This document shows positions 43,266 to 51,287 of a DNA stretch of 64,000 nucleotides, piece after piece. The translations under genes and the position numbers were made by a program. The stretch spans positions 15,274 through 79,273 of the forward strand of contig JBDHUR010000003.1 of NCBI GenBank assembly GCA_039809265.1, in the 5' to 3' direction. Under the pieces are notes generated by a model. That model saw nothing but the letters and a program-made list of their open reading frames with translations. It did not search any database and was not told the DNA's origin. The DNA comes from Minisyncoccia bacterium (lineage in GTDB: Bacteria; Patescibacteriota; Minisyncoccia; Phycocordibacterales; UBA9973). Every line of letters starts with the position of its first letter. The first letter of the stretch is position 1.

Positions 43266-44483
43266 CTATTTGTTCAAGAATTCAACAGCCTTATCCATTT
43301 GCGGATCTTTCTTGTTTTTTGCGTCATCTTCTGTAAATGGAACTTTGATATCTGGCTCTATGCCTTTCTCTGAGATTGAAACACCTTTTGGTGTAAGCCA
43401 TTTTGCAATAGTGACTTTCAAAGATGTGTCGTCTGTAACATTTACTACTTCTTGAACTGAACCTTTACCATAAGTGGTATCACCGACAAGTGTAGCCTTG
43501 TCATTATCTTTCAGCGCGCCAGCCAAAATCTCTGAAGCAGAAGCAGAGCCACCGTCTACAAGGATCACTAGCTTCAGCTGGTTTGTAAATACATCATAGC
43601 CTTTAGATCGGTGGACTATTGTGTCTCCATTTTTACCAAAATCTTCCGACACTACAACATCACCCGATGGCAAGAACCAGCTAGCCATGTCTATGGCAGC
43701 ATCAAGATACCCGCCCGGGTTGCCTCGCAAGTCTATGATAAGCTTTGAAGAACCGCTGTCAGCAAACTCTTTCAAAGCATTGCGGAAAAGTTTTGGTGAA
43801 TTTGCAGAAAAACTGTACAAACTTATAACAAAGACTCCATCATCGCGCTTTTTTGTATCTATCACAGGTGCTTCTATCGTGTCACGGACAATACTGATTT
43901 CTTTTGGAGAAGTCAGTCCTTTACGAACTACTGTCAGCTTTACTGTTGTCCCCTTCTCTCCGCGTATCAGCTTTACAGCTTCGTCCACGCTCAATCCAGA
44001 TGTTACTTTATCGTCAATCTTTAGTATCTGGTCACCAGATTGCATTCCTGCTTTTTCGGAAGGAGAACCTTTCAGAGGAGATATAACTGTCAATATGCTG
44101 TCTTTTATATCCACTTCCATGCCAACACCACTAAACTCGCCACTAATGGTTTCGTTGAACGATTTATTTTCTTCTGGATCAAAAAATACAGTGTATGGAT
44201 CACCATACGATGCAGCCAAACCTTTTATCGCACCATATATGCGTTCTTTGTTTGTTACTTTATCTGCGTCTGGATACTTTTTATTCAAAATATCCCAAAC
44301 TTGCCAAAAAGGCTCAAAATCTTCTTGGGATGCGCCGGTATCTGTCGGCGGAGTTTTGTTTATAACAGAAGCTACTCGTTCTACATAAGGACGCCTATTG
44401 TAACCAAAGTAACTACCAGCAAAAAATGCCAGAACTATAGCGATAACTGCACACGAGATAAAAAATGTTTTGTCTTTTTTCAT
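43266..44483 (-). CDS. ctpA: carboxyl-terminal processing protease (S41) with PDZ domain
   Basis: 405 aa; N-terminal [22 protein letters not shown] catalytic Ser region, KGS...K dyad. Confidence 0.85.
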
Positions 44484-44495
44484 AAAATAATTTGC

Positions 44496-45704
44496 TTAAG
44501 ATGAAAGTAATGCAGATGCAGTGTAAGTGTTTGCTGCATCCCATAACAGCCAGGAATTTAAGCCTACATCATAGGTTGCTTGCATTTGAGTACGCACCAT
44601 ATCGGCAGTGTATGTCGCACCCAAGTTAAAATCTTGAATCCATGGACGAAGTTTGGCTGGATCCTCGCCTATAGCTTTCGCTCGCGCCACAGCTCCTTCC
44701 ATGGAAGTCTTTACTATCTCGTACGGATGTTTTGCTGGCTCGGCTATGTTATAAGAACCTTTGGCATAATGAGACGGATACACCATTGGACATATGTAGT
44801 CAAAATATGGCAAAGCTTTCTCTAATACTTGGCCAATACCAAGGTCGTCTTTTGAAGTTGTAACCAAACCAAACATATCTGCAGATGTTTTTATTCCACT
44901 ATCTTTCAAAGCTTCATGTAGGTGTTCATAAAAATTTTTCATTATATCTGCGCGAGTAATTGTACCACCCTCATTTGGATATGCAATATCTTTCATGTTT
45001 CCATCAGAAGGAAAACGAATGTAGTCAAAATTTATTTCATCAAAACCCATTGCATAAGATTCGTTCGCAATATCTACTATGTATTTCCATACATCTTCAT
45101 TTGAAGGGTCTAAAAAACTCAAACCTTTATTGTCTTTCCAAACAGCTCCGGTTGATTTTGTTTTTATAGCCCAGTCTGGATTTAGTTTTGCCATATATGG
45201 GTCTTGAAAAACAGTTAGCCTGCCAACCACATATATACCCTTGCTGTGTAAATCAGCTATGAGTTTTTTTGGGGCTGCTATTCTTTTCTCTGTTGACTTA
45301 TATTGAGTAATGTCTGGATTTTTCATCTCAAAAGAGATTTTTCCAGTTGAGTCTTTTATGTCTATCACTACAGTATTTAACTCTGTAGTATCCACCATTT
45401 TTACAATTTTGGAAAACAGATTTGCCGAGCCAGCAACCCAGCTAGACACATATACACCCTTGACCTCACTCGGTGTTTCGATGTGCGTAACAACAACAGC
45501 ATCTTCCCCAGACAGAAAAGACATTTCTGTCTTTTCTGGTACACTCACCATTTCTTCTAAGGTATTTCCACCAGAATTTCCTACACCAGCAGTATTCGCT
45601 GTGTATCTTATTGAAGCAATGTCTGGCTCAAAAAATGCATACGAAACAAAAGCTGCCGCTACAGCAATAAGAACAGCAGCAAATATCAATAATTTTTTAT
45701 TCAT
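44496..45704 (-). CDS. secreted glycoside-hydrolase-like TIM-barrel protein (GHL/DUF4015-like), putative
   Basis: 402 aa; signal peptide; FDEINFDYIRFPSDG segment resembling GHL-family putative glycosidases. Weak assignment. Confidence 0.4.
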   Translation of the reverse strand: MNKKLLIFAAVLIAVAAAFVSYAFFEPDIASIRYTANTAGVGNSGGNTLEEMVSVPEKTEMSFLSGEDAVVVTHIETPSEVKGVYVSSWVAGSANLFSKIVKMVDTTELNTVVIDIKDSTGKISFEMKNPDITQYKSTEKRIAAPKKLIADLHSKGIYVVGRLTVFQDPYMAKLNPDWAIKTKSTGAVWKDNKGLSFLDPSNEDVWKYIVDIANESYAMGFDEINFDYIRFPSDGNMKDIAYPNEGGTITRADIMKNFYEHLHEALKDSGIKTSADMFGLVTTSKDDLGIGQVLEKALPYFDYICPMVYPSHYAKGSYNIAEPAKHPYEIVKTSMEGAVARAKAIGEDPAKLRPWIQDFNLGATYTADMVRTQMQATYDVGLNSWLLWDAANTYTASALLSS

Positions 45705-46206
45705 GTATATTTTCTACTCCTTGCTGGTAAGGATATGTGGATGAAACCCTGTACTGCTTGTGGGGCGCAACTTCTTGCTCTTGATTATTTTCTGATTCAG
45801 CATTTTCAGAAATATCTGGAACCTCCCTTTCTATAACACGCACAACTCTCCTCCTGCGAATGCGCGGAGGTGCCGCCTGCTCAGGTGCTTCAGACCCTGC
45901 AGTACCATACATATCAGCAATGTCTGTATTGGGGCGTTGCTCTACAAAAGACTGTGATGTATTGCGCAGCTTGGCCAAGAAGTCTCGTCTTTCCCTATAT
46001 AACAAATATCCTACAGTAAAGATTAAAAGCCCTATAATAGCTAAAACTATTCTCTTCCAGAAAAATGGAACCCCAAAGAATGGAAAGATTGCAGTAAAAA
46101 GTCCTAGTATACAGATGATCCGTTGTTTGAGCATGTTTGTGATGAAAAATAATTTATATAAATGTATTATACACGAAAAATAAGAAAAGCTATGTGAATT
46201 AGGCAT
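45697..46206 (-). CDS. hypothetical membrane protein with Arg-rich linker
   Basis: 169 aa; two N-terminal TM helices, RRRRVVRV tract. No motif recognised. Confidence 0.35.
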   Translation of the reverse strand: MPNSHSFSYFSCIIHLYKLFFITNMLKQRIICILGLFTAIFPFFGVPFFWKRIVLAIIGLLIFTVGYLLYRERRDFLAKLRNTSQSFVEQRPNTDIADMYGTAGSEAPEQAAPPRIRRRRVVRVIEREVPDISENAESENNQEQEVAPHKQYRVSSTYPYQQGVENIHE

Positions 46207-46843
46207 GGACGAAGGCAGAGATGCGCTTTACTTTATGCGAGCGCGGTATTATAATGCCGACAGGGGCAGGTTTTTATCAGAAGACCCTGTGTGGGATGAA
46301 AACCTGTTCCCTTATGGTAACAACAATCCCGCAACTAATATTGATCCGAATGGAGATTGTCCTATTTGTTTGGTTTTAGGTGAAGCTGGGTTTGGTATTG
46401 CAACAGGTTACGGCATTGCGAAACTAACAGGACAAGATTATACTTGGAAAAACGCTGTTGTTGATGGTGCATTAGGTGCTATTACTGCGGGGGCAAGTAT
46501 TTATGCAGGGATAGCTAAGATTGGGGCAAAGGGAGGTATTGCAAGTTCTAGAGCATTAGGTAGAGCAATGGAAGAATCGTTGGGGATGCTTAAATCAAAA
46601 ACTTCTATTAATATCGGAGGTAAAATTAGATTCCCCGATAGATTAACAAATGGATTTTTGGAAGAAGCTAAAAATGTTGCGCATTTAAATTTTACAAGAC
46701 AACTAAAGGATTATTTAAAATATTCTCAGGATAATGGTTTGCAGATGATTTTACATACAAGGGGAAGTACAACTTTCTCCAAAACTCTTCAAAAGCTAAT
46801 TGATGACGGTATTATTATTCATAAAAAAGTGCCTGGGTTTTAA
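46205..46843 (+). CDS. orphan RHS C-terminal tip: RHS core end motif plus Gly-rich hydrophobic linker plus putative PD-(D/E)xK-type toxin domain
   Basis: ALYFMRARYYNADRGRFLSEDPV...YGNNNPATNIDPNG is the canonical RHS core C-terminal motif. Downstream RFPDRL...EEAKN fits PD-x(n)-ExK. No RHS repeat body upstream. Confidence 0.6.
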   Translation: MDEGRDALYFMRARYYNADRGRFLSEDPVWDENLFPYGNNNPATNIDPNGDCPICLVLGEAGFGIATGYGIAKLTGQDYTWKNAVVDGALGAITAGASIYAGIAKIGAKGGIASSRALGRAMEESLGMLKSKTSINIGGKIRFPDRLTNGFLEEAKNVAHLNFTRQLKDYLKYSQDNGLQMILHTRGSTTFSKTLQKLIDDGIIIHKKVPGF

Positions 46844-46856
46844 TATATAAATTTTT

Positions 46857-47453
46857 ATGACTGATTTAAATATTTTAGAAAAACGTTGGGCAGAATTAGC
46901 CAGTAAGCCAAAGTCAAAAGAAGAAATCGAGGAAGTATTGCTACTTGGTAAGAAAATTGAGTTAGAGCGAGCAAAAGAATATAAAGGATTAATTAATGAG
47001 CTTGCAGGTATAGGCATAAATATAACATCAATTTGGGATTTAGTAAATACAAAAGCTAAATATCCCGATGCCATTACATACTTATTAAAATATTTACCAA
47101 TGGTTACTTACGAAAGGAATAAAGAGGGTATAATAAGAGCCTTAACTGTCTCTGAAGCAAAAGGAGTAGCAATTCCAGTTCTTTTAAATGAATATTTAAA
47201 ATTACCTAAAGAAAAGGAAAATTTAAGATGGATAATTGGCAATGCTGTGAATGTAATTGCTACAAAAAATGATGTGGAGACAATAATCCCCATTGTTTTG
47301 GATAAAGAAAATGGGCCATCAAGACAAATGTTCGTATCGGCATTAGGTAAAATAAAAAATGAAAAAATAAAAAATGTGTTACTTCAACTAATTAATGATG
47401 ATGATAAGGTTATTAGGGATGAGGCTCAAAAAGTCTTGAAGAAGTTTAAATAA
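46857..47453 (+). CDS. HEAT/PBS-lyase-like repeat protein, candidate immunity protein
   Basis: 198 aa; repeated helical LxxLxxD..VR..A motifs; immediately downstream of the toxin tip. Confidence 0.5.
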   Translation: MTDLNILEKRWAELASKPKSKEEIEEVLLLGKKIELERAKEYKGLINELAGIGINITSIWDLVNTKAKYPDAITYLLKYLPMVTYERNKEGIIRALTVSEAKGVAIPVLLNEYLKLPKEKENLRWIIGNAVNVIATKNDVETIIPIVLDKENGPSRQMFVSALGKIKNEKIKNVLLQLINDDDKVIRDEAQKVLKKFK

Positions 47454-47482
47454 AAGAGTTTTAAATTCAAAACAGAATAAAA

Positions 47483-47923
47483 ATGAAAAGAATACCGATA
47501 GTAATGCTTTACTTGCTGACTTCGTTGGGGGCATACAGTCAAGGTAAAAAATCATACTCATATGAGTTTGATAACATACACCGCGTTATCAAAGAATCCT
47601 ACTCACCTGAGTGCAAGTTTATAACCTACACTTACGATAATGACGGAAACCGTTTATTAGAATCTAAAAAATACTTTACGTTTAACGTAAATCAACAAAA
47701 TATAACCTGCCAAAACCCAACAGGCAGCATAATACTAACACCCACCTCAACGGGTGTTTATTCATACCAGTGGAGTAGTGGAGCAACAGGAAACACAGGA
47801 ACTAATTTAACACAAGGGGTAAACACTGTTACTATAACAGAAAGCAACTACAATGGTGCAACCATTACCACAAACTCGCCGCGGATTTTAGATTTGTTTT
47901 CTGCAAAATACCTTTTGACATAG
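47483..47923 (+). pseudogene. RHS/YD-repeat protein N-terminal remnant (signal peptide plus YD repeats), truncated
   Basis: Signal peptide MKRIPIVMLYLLTSLGAYSQG; YSYEFDNIHRV and YTYDNDGNRLL YD-repeat motifs. The ORF runs into the convergent rsmI 3' end. Confidence 0.45.
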
Positions 47924-48531
47924 TCAATATCTCCTTTGACAAATTCTTCATAAAGTTTTGTCATCTCTCTAGCGATCACAACTTCCCTGCCCTTATTCAA
48001 AACTTTTGCAAGCGACTCAAGTGTTTTTTCTATTCTATGCGTAGATTCATAAAAGACAGACACATCCTTTGCTTCGCGAAGCTTTGCAAATATAGTCTCA
48101 CGACCCTTTTTGTGTGGCAAAAATCCAAAGAAATGAAACTCTGCTGTGGATAAACCGGAAGCAGAAAGTGCAGAGACTAGAGCACTAGGTCCTGGAACAG
48201 GAATTACTTTGCACTCTGGTAAATCTCTGTGGACATGTTCCACGAGCAGAACTCCTGGGTCAGAAATGGCAGGTGTGCCAGCATCTGAAACCAAGGATAA
48301 AGTCTTACCTTCCTCAAGCATTTGCAAAATGTCTTTTTCCTTATTCAAAGAGCTATTCGCATGGTAGCTCATGGTTTTGGTTTTTATATCGTAATGATAT
48401 AGAAGTTTCTTTGTAACACGAGTATCTTCACACAGAACAAGATCAGACTCGGCAAGCACGCGAATAGCCCGAAGAGTTATATCCTCCAAGTTGCCTATGG
48501 GTGTTGCTACTATGTATAGTATTCCTGCCAT
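47848..48531 (-). CDS. rsmI: 16S rRNA (cytidine1402-2'-O)-methyltransferase
   Basis: Start trimmed to MAGILYIVATPIGNLEDITLRA. Tetrapyrrole-methylase fold. Confidence 0.85.
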   Translation of the reverse strand: MAGILYIVATPIGNLEDITLRAIRVLAESDLVLCEDTRVTKKLLYHYDIKTKTMSYHANSSLNKEKDILQMLEEGKTLSLVSDAGTPAISDPGVLLVEHVHRDLPECKVIPVPGPSALVSALSASGLSTAEFHFFGFLPHKKGRETIFAKLREAKDVSVFYESTHRIEKTLESLAKVLNKGREVVIAREMTKLYEEFVKGDIDYVKRYFAENKSKIRGEFVVMVAPL

Positions 48532-48583
48532 ATATAAATACGCGTCACGCAAGTGTATTATAACATGTTATAATACATAGAGT

Positions 48584-50552: not shown

Positions 50553-51287
50553 TTACTTCTTCACCTGCATGCCTCTATGATAAACTATCGTGTTTAACAC
50601 CGCGTCCAAATACACATGGTGTGTTTTTGGCAGCCAATGATAAATATGATTTTTTGTAATGTTAAAAGTGCTCCAAGGCCCTTTCGCACAATGCAAGATG
50701 GTTTTACTTATAGAAATACCAAGTCTTTTGTTTAACTCTAAAAAACTGTACTCCATGAGGGAGATATAGAAATCTTGGTCTACATCTACGCATATCACTT
50801 TATTTTGCAGATAGGATGGGAATCTGAACTTATACGTCTCCAGACCGCCATCTTCCGGCATCCTGTAAATCGAACGATCAAAAGATTCATCACCATCTTT
50901 GTTGTAGAAAAAACGAGTTCTTTCTTTAGATAGGTATTCATCAATGCAGGCATATATGGCGTATCCGCAATCAGAAAACACAGGCGGAAATGTCTTTTCG
51001 TATTTATATATCCGAAAGTCTGGGTTTACGAGGCGGGGATCTGTAGCCATAGATTCTACGGCTATCCGGAAGACTATACTTTTACCATCTTTTGTCGGAT
51101 TGCTTATGTTTTCATAAACCTTATAATCTTCTTTCCCCCACAGTGAAGTATTTAGATTTGACATGACGTCATAATATTTCAACTCCATATTGTCGCGATA
51201 GTCACGCGGCTCATTTGAGCTGATCAGTTCTTTGGCAATAAGCACTACCTTGATATCCTCGGTGTGACTTTCAAGTTTCTGTACCAT
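50553..51287 (-). CDS. hypothetical protein
   Basis: 244 aa ORF with a DVDQD (DxD-like) segment. No confident family assignment. Confidence 0.4.
   Translation of the reverse strand: MVQKLESHTEDIKVVLIAKELISSNEPRDYRDNMELKYYDVMSNLNTSLWGKEDYKVYENISNPTKDGKSIVFRIAVESMATDPRLVNPDFRIYKYEKTFPPVFSDCGYAIYACIDEYLSKERTRFFYNKDGDESFDRSIYRMPEDGGLETYKFRFPSYLQNKVICVDVDQDFYISLMEYSFLELNKRLGISISKTILHCAKGPWSTFNITKNHIYHWLPKTHHVYLDAVLNTIVYHRGMQVKK

Follow-up and report, generated by a model that had tools for sequence, protein, structure and literature searches.

A shell-less RHS toxin tip and its putative HEAT-repeat immunity gene on a Bacteroidota-derived island in a Patescibacteria genome

The stretch of DNA analysed here, referred to as the window, comprises 64 kb of contig JBDHUR010000003.1 from a Minisyncoccia bacterium; it represents the sequence of the host genome that was seen, and all coordinates are window positions. 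Between the stop codon of an rsmI-like methyltransferase gene and the promoter of a gene for a membrane protein of 145 amino acids (aa), the window contains a foreign island of approximately 1.67 kb (46180-47852) of Bacteroidota origin. The island carries the 3' end of a rearrangement hotspot (RHS) toxin gene, a putative immunity gene and the truncated start of a third gene. The remainder of the window includes core genes such as those for ribosomal proteins and the F-type ATP synthase. Because proteins named Candidatus Parcubacteria, Pacebacteria, Nomurabacteria or Patescibacteria group share 85-88% identity with the window's ATP synthase beta subunit, the host is, on the evidence of this protein, a bacterium of the Patescibacteria (candidate phyla radiation, CPR) of Parcubacteria/Paceibacteria-like affinity, which agrees with an earlier sequence-only reading of this DNA that had described the genome as reduced. 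The description and coordinates which that reading gave for the toxin and immunity genes were correct far beyond chance, and the feature reaches further to the right, to approximately 47852. Contigs and loci used for comparison carry the labels L001-L010, L040, L043, L044, L046, L048-L050, L052-L054, L056 and L087-L089, and two proteins are labelled P0006 and P0427.

The toxin open reading frame (ORF; 46205-46843, forward strand) encodes 212 aa and proceeds from a core-end remnant through a linker to a Tox-REase-7 domain. Its sequence opens with MDEGRDALYFMRARYYNADRGRFLSEDPVWDENLFPYGNNNPATNIDPNG..., continues with a Gly/Ala-rich stretch and closes with a C-terminal domain of ~110 residues; an in-frame stop codon lies just 5' of it at 46181-46183. 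The remnant of the rhs core end (46184-46357, forward strand) represents the last ~55 codons of the C-terminal plug, or aspartyl-protease region, and ends in ...NIDPNG. Residues 7-50 of the ORF match positions 29-75 of the 76 in the NCBIfam model TIGR03696 (Rhs_assc_core) with an E-value of 1.2e-10 and 41.8 bits (curated cutoff 32.5 bits), and because the match is confined to these positions, the core domain is represented by its C-terminal part alone. The last ~48 residues of Rhs and TcC cores in the PDB align to ORF residues 6-50. Both DPxx motifs of the core end are retained (DPVW, residue 27; DPNG, residue 47) and are separated by 16 residues; in Rhs1 the distance between the two DPLGL motifs is 17 residues, and the second contains the catalytic Asp (PMC8636562). 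Approximately half of the protease plug, which spans ~95 residues according to the same study (PMC8636562), is absent.

A Pfam scan of the ORF gave no match to RHS_repeat (PF05593), the tyrosine-aspartate (YD) repeat of the shell, and Pfam and NCBIfam scans found no N-terminal trafficking domain (PAAR/VgrG-binding, signal peptide or LXG) in a frame that begins inside the core end. With no shell, no N-terminal domain and only part of the core, the ORF is, to judge by its domain content, not a full-length RHS protein. Because the island has neither a shell nor a trafficking domain, canonical encapsulated RHS delivery is impossible. These results bear out the sequence-only reading, which had described an orphan RHS C-terminal tip whose frame begins in the middle of the core-end motif, with a divergent gene and no YD-repeat body upstream; the upstream neighbour is the divergent, native gene for the 145-aa membrane protein.

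The core end is followed by a moderately hydrophobic, Gly/Ala-rich linker (46355-46549, forward strand; DCPICLVLGEAGFGIATGYGIA...AVVDGALGAITAGASIYAGIAKIG). Glycine and alanine make up 38% of its residues, and hydrophobic stretches occur at residues 51-75 and 81-110, with a maximum Kyte-Doolittle value of 1.37 over 15 residues; the linker had been described as Gly-rich and hydrophobic, and it is both. The best sequence match in the PDB to residues 6-104 (46220-46516) is the mosquito salivary gland surface protein SGS1 (8fjp_A, E-value 3.5e-5), in an alignment which runs beyond the Rhs core end and through the Gly/Ala-rich linker. A hydrophobic segment after the core may be a recurring module of RHS-type proteins.

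The C-terminal domain (46565-46789, forward strand) is a predicted nuclease of the Tox-REase-7 family (PF15649) of PD-(D/E)xK type. Residues 121-195 of the ORF cover positions 3-84 of the 84-position profile with an E-value of 1.2e-12 and 48.3 bits (curated cutoff 25 bits). In an alignment with four tips found at Bacteroidota RHS loci, the domain is 65-72% identical to its counterparts, and the motifs G-RAM-E, RFPD (with Phe for Ile), EEAK and Q are invariant; these correspond to the motifs GxxxE, IxD, ExK and Q described as conserved in Tox-REase-7 (Zhang et al. 2012, PMC3482391). Both the profile and the motifs place the tip in this toxin family, for which a restriction-endonuclease fold is predicted, and the earlier proposal of a PD-(D/E)xK-like nuclease, for which conservation of the D/E/K residues had been suggested as a check, is supported by the match above the cutoff and by the invariance of the motifs. 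Sequence and profile searches of PDB sequences found no relative of the domain with a solved structure, and modelling of the 212-aa ORF with AlphaFold2 from a four-sequence alignment gave a mean predicted local distance difference test score of 34.7, too low for the model to be used.

Directly downstream lies the putative Imm-HEAT immunity gene (46857-47453, forward strand), which encodes 198 aa and is assigned as the cognate partner of the Tox-REase-7 tip. The protein matches HEAT_2 with 29.6 bits, narrowly above the gathering score of 27.7. Among 241 homologues, all that are named belong to Bacteroidota (60-77% identity, the best 72-77%) and include Sphingobacterium, Flavihumibacter, Pedobacter, Flavobacterium, Saprospiraceae and Bacteroidales proteins. 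The gene accompanies the REase-7 tip in every CPR strain that has this tip. In Sphingobacterium mizutaii (L052) and the metagenome contigs L053 and L054, a Tox-REase-7 ORF is followed after ~10 nt by a homologue, and in L052 and L053 the pair is located at the end of a DUF6443/RHS-repeat gene. The Bacteroidota pairs belong to the same families as the pair in the window, with tips 65-72% and 198-aa HEAT proteins 72-77% identical to it, and have the same gene order and spacing (L052; PMC3482391). They differ in that the Bacteroidota pair stands at the end of, or just after, an RHS-repeat gene of more than 1100 aa, whereas the window retains only the ~55 core codons. Zhang et al. (2012, PMC3482391) also list this pairing, with Imm-HEAT providing the immunity. 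Given the adjacency in Bacteroidota, this listing and the invariant motifs, the assignment as a toxin-immunity pair is well supported by comparison, and the pairing itself was already known. The HEAT protein had been put forward as an immunity candidate, with the alternative that it is a conserved housekeeping gene; it is not of the housekeeping kind: it belongs to a strain-variable island, and in other strains different immunity families take its place.

In S. mizutaii (L052, 5760-10597), Tox-REase-7 is a separate 138-aa ORF with a hydrophobic N-terminus, unfused to the RHS gene. The order there is a 1185-aa DUF6443/RHS-repeat gene, an 86-aa ORF and then the 138-aa ORF, with an Imm40 gene and an IS110 transposase nearby; this arrangement may be frameshifted or modular.

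The third ORF (47483-47923, forward strand), which the sequence-only reading did not mention, encodes 146 aa and comprises a signal peptide and the first ~122 residues of a SprB-repeat surface protein of the type IX secretion system (T9SS), cut off at the island junction. The final 24 codons (75 nt) of the ORF are the antisense of the rsmI 3' end. In addition to the signal peptide it contains one YD-like motif and a single SprB repeat at 23.2 bits, below the Pfam cutoff of 28 bits; the Por_Secre_tail sorting domain is absent from the ORF, which does not by itself qualify as a SprB-repeat protein. A search of 1.84 billion representatives with this ORF returned SprB-repeat giants. By tblastn, residues 4-122 of the ORF are 51% identical to the N-terminus of P0427, an 833-aa protein that combines six SprB repeats with a Por_Secre_tail domain, in an alignment that ends at 47845. 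In a donor, the SprB-repeat gene after the rhs locus would be expected to begin with MKRIPIVMLYLL... or MNKVSLLSVLLYF.... T9SS sorting is a Bacteroidota-type system, and because the island holds a fragment of a T9SS-specific gene, the donor phylum is, on this evidence, unambiguously Bacteroidota. A fragment of a T9SS substrate would be expected to have no role in a CPR cell, yet this one keeps an intact signal peptide and is under constraint.

The limits of the island were set by comparison with the sister lineage L048 (ATP synthase beta 94% identical), which has an empty site: only 56 bp separate rsmI from the membrane-protein gene, followed by DUF4015. The insert is likewise absent from the more distant relative L049. 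On the left, homology between the window and L048 extends to 46135, and on the right it starts again at 47861. This comparison places the left junction at approximately 46177-46183, just outside the conserved promoter box TTCGTGTATAAT of the membrane-protein gene, and the right junction at 47846-47857, where the SprB alignment stops at 47845 and similarity to rsmI begins no later than 47857, and gives the island its size of ~1.67 kb. Neither a target-site duplication nor terminal inverted repeats were found around the island, and neither a recombinase nor repeats flank the site. The GC content is 0.295 in the tip and immunity part of the island and ~0.39 around it. As a whole, the island represents one contiguous slice of a foreign chromosome, composed of an rhs 3' end, its tip, the immunity gene and the 5' end of the next gene.

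An abrupt change of GC content and taxonomic affinity at the island borders is also what an assembly chimera of CPR and Bacteroidota reads would produce. The same two junctions recur in more than 20 independent assemblies (ENA, Logan, NCBI and JGI), and single contigs of up to 413 kb carry CPR genes to the left and right of the island, so that an artefact of this kind can scarcely be credited.

On both sides the flanking genes are native. The membrane-protein gene (45697-46134, reverse strand; 145 aa) is divergent from the island, is conserved in L048 and 99% identical among strains, and has an extended -10 box at ~46164-46175. The rsmI-like methyltransferase gene (47848-48552, reverse strand; PF00590) is convergent with the island and homologous to L048 from 47861.

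The island occurs at the same junctions in ~25 independent contigs of one species-level lineage, and these contigs differ in the toxin and immunity genes that they carry. Cassette 1 (the window, L040, L043, L050 and L056) combines a CPIC-type linker with Tox-REase-7 and Imm-HEAT. Cassette 2, with the subtypes 2a (L001-6) and 2b (L007-9, L044), has a linker unlike the CPIC type, a Tox-REase-9 tip and a DUF4304 immunity protein. A CPIC-type linker and an unclassified tip are found both in cassette 3 (L010), where the immunity family is SMI1_KNR4, and in cassette 4 (L087-89), where it is Imm44. With 2a and 2b as subtypes, at least five cassettes occupy the same junctions, and the toxin and immunity ORFs are intact in all ~25 contigs and all five types, free of stops and frameshifts. 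The tips of cassette 3 (L010 1281-1892; HEIHPVKFGG...SQHAH) and cassette 4 (L089 341-940; VVHGNS...LKNGIT) match no Pfam family at E-values up to 10 and may represent unclassified nuclease families.

Homology between strains at the DNA level ends either exactly after ...NIDPNG (46357/46358) or within or just after the linker (~46498-46555), and resumes at ~47524-47570, inside the SprB fragment. The linker is common to the window and L010 up to 46535 and to the window and L089 up to 46555, and in this comparison it behaves as a separate recombining module common to cassettes 1, 3 and 4. Six core-end haplotypes reassort with the tips. These patterns indicate that cassettes are exchanged by homologous recombination in three common modules, namely the core end, the linker and the SprB fragment, with the core-end remnant serving as the left homology arm and the SprB fragment as the right. 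A recombination-scar piece (47470-47541, forward strand; 72 nt, made up of intergenic sequence and the start of the signal peptide) is 100% identical to a relic in L010. In that relic (2290-2454) the 72-nt piece reads in frame into the final 90 nt (~27 codons) of the toxin gene of cassette 4 (FPNRLEAWKWEFQQNQILRGLLNKNMH), and an orphan Imm44 gene follows 3' of it, giving this strain two immunity genes. The nested arrangement is, by its composition, the scar of an earlier exchange.

Exchange also extends to native sequence. The native DUF4015 gene (44501-45700) differs between the window and L050 at 6-16 nt per 100 nt, and in the same comparison few or no differences occur in the neighbouring segments 44001-44500 and 45701-46200. 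The population is, on this pattern, a mosaic of recombined segments from deeply diverged sublineages.

The toxin ORF's ATG (46205-46207) is polymorphic at 46207. It is ATG in the window, L040, L043, L044, L046 and L089, and ATA in L001-9, L010, L050 and L056, ATA coding for the Ile that is expected in the RHS core (...IDEG...). The ATA strains start their ORFs 10 codons further on, with the ATG that corresponds to 46235 (MRARYY, 202 aa). The ATG variant at 46205 is found with at least three cassettes and either recombines freely among cassettes or arose more than once.

To evaluate selection on the island, divergence was expressed as the proportion of synonymous differences (pS) and the ratio of nonsynonymous to synonymous proportions (pN/pS). 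In the 40 codons of the core end compared across all loci, pS is 0.35-0.39 and pN/pS is 0, with all 17 segregating sites synonymous and none nonsynonymous (p ~5e-12). For the CPIC-type linker, comparison of the window with L050 or L010 gives pS 0.29-0.37 and pN/pS 0.05-0.06, and among strains the SprB fragment has pS 0.21-0.38 and pN/pS 0.11-0.16 (p ~6e-8). The native DUF4015 gene has pS 0.287 and pN/pS 0.06 between the window and L050. The REase-7 domain and HEAT gene, compared between the same two sequences, have pS ~0.01, at which pN/pS is not measurable. Between cassettes 2a and 2b (L001 and L007), the REase-9 tip has pS 0.66 and pN/pS 0.20, and DUF4304 has pS 0.42 and pN/pS 0.32.

The simplest reading of these values is that the island arms are under constraint comparable to that on native genes, the arm pS of ~0.3 being close to the 0.287 of DUF4015, that the island predates the split of the recombining sublineages, and that the REase-7/HEAT cassette is young in the population and would have spread by recombination through the arms. 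Repeated import from Bacteroidota donors via the island arms, which diversity limited to the island would imply, was considered as another source of the divergence and rejected: in the comparison with L050, native genes are equally diverged in patches (DUF4015 pS 0.287, with 7-16 differences per 100 nt), and variable sites in the right arm are found up to 15 nt from the junction, which leaves too little room for crossovers with a donor that lacks rsmI.

The sequence-only reading had regarded the module as decaying or silent. On such an account, the island is the product of a chance horizontal transfer, unexpressed and too young to have acquired disabling mutations. The island does have no delivery apparatus, no signal peptide on its toxin, no clear ribosome-binding site and promoter matches only at chance level, and the pS of ~0.01 in REase-7/HEAT would allow a recent arrival. 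Against this account, the arms have diverged to pS ~0.3 at pN/pS 0-0.16, as native genes have; no stop or frameshift is found in the ~25 contigs and five cassette types; replacement of a cassette always exchanges toxin and immunity gene as a matched pair; and the new upstream ATG at 46205 occurs on more than one cassette background. The intact ORFs, the 17 synonymous and 0 nonsynonymous changes of the core end and the exchange of cassettes speak against decay. A silent relic is disfavoured by the selection data, less so for the window's own young cassette, and we consider it unlikely as an explanation of the island.

Orphan rhs-CT/rhsI and cdiA-CT/cdiI modules of Enterobacteria resemble the island in that a 5'-truncated core fragment and a complete tip are directly followed by an immunity gene, in that their breakpoints lie at the core/tip boundary (DPxG), and in that they contain nested relics of earlier cassettes, as in L010 here. 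With its truncated core, tip and immunity gene, the island is by its composition an orphan rhs-CT/immunity module for which the matching full-length rhs was not found. Orphan modules in Enterobacteria have an established role as a reservoir for full-length rhs genes. A corresponding role here would have a full-length rhs elsewhere in the genome recombine with the cassette via the common core end and so change its tip, and the recombination seen exactly at the DPNG boundary is what this process would leave. However, the classical orphans sit 3' of a full-length rhs, whereas no parent rhs for the island was found in the collections searched.

The sequence-only reading had proposed a search for a full-length rhs gene with a matching core end, and the search was negative in every collection: none was found in 5.8 billion protein clusters, GTDB genomes, JGI metagenomes or the 64-kb window. 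In the search of protein clusters, a collection which includes 100-400 kb contigs of this lineage, the proteins with this core end are all short (190-212 aa), and the best full-length-type RHS match, the fragment P0006, is just 71% identical. The nearest core ends in GTDB genomes are at most 68% identical and mostly from Bacteroidota (Saprospiraceae, Chitinophagales and Bacteroidales). A scan of JGI metagenomes with the core-end alignment returned one contig of the same lineage and otherwise only distant RHS genes, with no donor among them, and a metagenome scan with the SprB-fragment alignment gave 599 pattern matches, of which 0 were relatives, and again no donor. Within the window, tblastn with RHS fragments and bodies found nothing else. 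The absence of any protein longer than 212 aa with this core end among the clusters, the low identity of P0006 and the 0 matches in GTDB species genomes, JGI metagenomes and the window make a reservoir for a resident rhs very improbable. No close relative of the toxin alignment or the HEAT protein turned up in scans of viral contigs, which thus gave no sign of phage carriage, and PADLOC defence models gave no relevant match.

The functions proposed for the island are inferred throughout. We think it probable, with a clear margin of doubt, that the island is a self-neutralised, recombining toxin-immunity module of Bacteroidota derivation, which has no shell and is kept for immunity, for addiction or for both. 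It would have entered one species-level lineage in a single insertion by illegitimate recombination between rsmI and the membrane-protein gene, the inserted slice comprising the last ~55 rhs core codons, the linker, the Tox-REase-7 tip, Imm-HEAT and the first ~122 codons of a SprB gene. The short nuclease would be made in the cytoplasm and neutralised by the adjacent HEAT protein. Two reasons for retention are conceivable: the immunity gene may protect against matching toxins of neighbouring cells, and loss of the pair may be hindered by the intact toxin in an addiction-like manner. Turnover of cassettes by homologous recombination would then track the local toxin repertoire.

Several observations weigh against this explanation. 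Promoter-like sites in the island do not exceed shuffled expectation, and no clear Shine-Dalgarno sequence lies 5' of any island gene. The pS of ~0.01 for REase-7/HEAT between sublineages leaves selection on the window's own tip not measurable. The low pN/pS of the arms could stem from the donor genomes, which is unlikely given the identical junctions and matching pS. A role in immunity or addiction explains neither the fully invariant 40-residue core-end peptide nor the constraint on the truncated SprB fragment. An RHS shell gene with a different core end may also be present beyond the 64-kb window.

Because core-end conservation and SprB constraint are left unexplained, a weapon that works by a non-RHS route was kept as a minority hypothesis. 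The ~200-aa protein would be released by lysis, in vesicles or through another exporter and would enter its target by means of the glycine-zipper-like linker, possibly after self-cleavage at DPNG, in competition between strains or attack on a host. Such a function would account for the strict amino-acid conservation of linker and core end and for the retention of both DPxx motifs, the second of which is at the site of the catalytic Asp in Rhs1 (PMC8636562). The multi-allelic toxin-immunity polymorphism at one site is typical of frequency-dependent selection, and the linker resembles the post-core region of mosquito SGS1. The protein fits the role poorly in other respects: the protease plug of ~95 residues lacks approximately half its length, any self-cleavage outside a shell would be hypothetical, linker hydrophobicity is modest (the maximum of 1.37 given above), and there is no signal peptide, lysis gene or receptor-binding domain. 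We give this possibility a small chance.

A tentative extension of the same idea, to which we likewise attach little weight, treats the locus as a domesticated, shell-less RHS tip. The core-end peptide and glycine-zipper linker would form a minimal leader for self-processing and membrane entry, and the ~200-aa nuclease would act outside its producer with neither an RHS cage nor a secretion system. It is similarly doubtful, though conceivable, that the secreted SprB fragment is a third functional part and that the locus serves strain competition or host manipulation in an episymbiont. If the tip has been domesticated in this way, its Bacteroidota origin would point to the physical partner of the CPR cell. 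To our knowledge, the hosts of most CPR lineages are unknown.

The preferred explanation, a module kept for immunity and/or addiction, can be set beside several known systems. Compared with the Enterobacteria orphans, the island differs in its reduced-genome CPR host, in transfer between phyla and in purifying selection on a truncated ORF. Acquired interbacterial defence islands and orphan immunity gene islands of gut Bacteroidales are similar in that genes for immunity to the toxins of other bacteria are gained horizontally, differ between strains and collect at one site, as the two immunity genes of L010 do. Islands of that kind reportedly hold immunity genes without intact toxins and often a dedicated recombinase. 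Here, in contrast, every allele keeps an intact toxin ORF, and neither a recombinase nor repeats flank the site. Type II toxin-antitoxin systems share with the island a small cytoplasmic nuclease toxin encoded beside a neutralising protein, and loss of such a pair is disfavoured if the toxin outlasts its antidote. The island differs from these systems in having the gene order and families of polymorphic toxins, no DNA-binding antitoxin and no PADLOC match, and addiction is ascribed to it by reasoning from this likeness.

Tox-REase-7/Imm-HEAT pairs and orphan RHS tips are both known already, and it is the host and the evolutionary setting that are unusual. A 1.7-kb Bacteroidota fragment has persisted in a very small CPR genome until synonymous divergence reached ~0.3, toxin-immunity cassettes have been swapped at the same site, and the leftover coding pieces have been conserved in amino-acid sequence. 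In the searchable literature on polymorphic toxins in CPR/Patescibacteria, no publication on RHS tips in this group was found. Should these three observations on the fragment stand, interbacterial toxin pressure or toxin-immunity addiction shapes even minimal episymbiont genomes, and the locus would provide a concrete marker for which Bacteroidota live with these Paceibacteria-like cells. The locus also constitutes a natural test of the usefulness of an RHS tip without its shell.

Elsewhere in the window, a 244-aa ORF (50553-51287, reverse strand) with no Pfam match is flanked by the genes for an S9 peptidase and the ATP synthase epsilon subunit. It is kept in all strains and has a 233-aa counterpart in the sister lineage L048.

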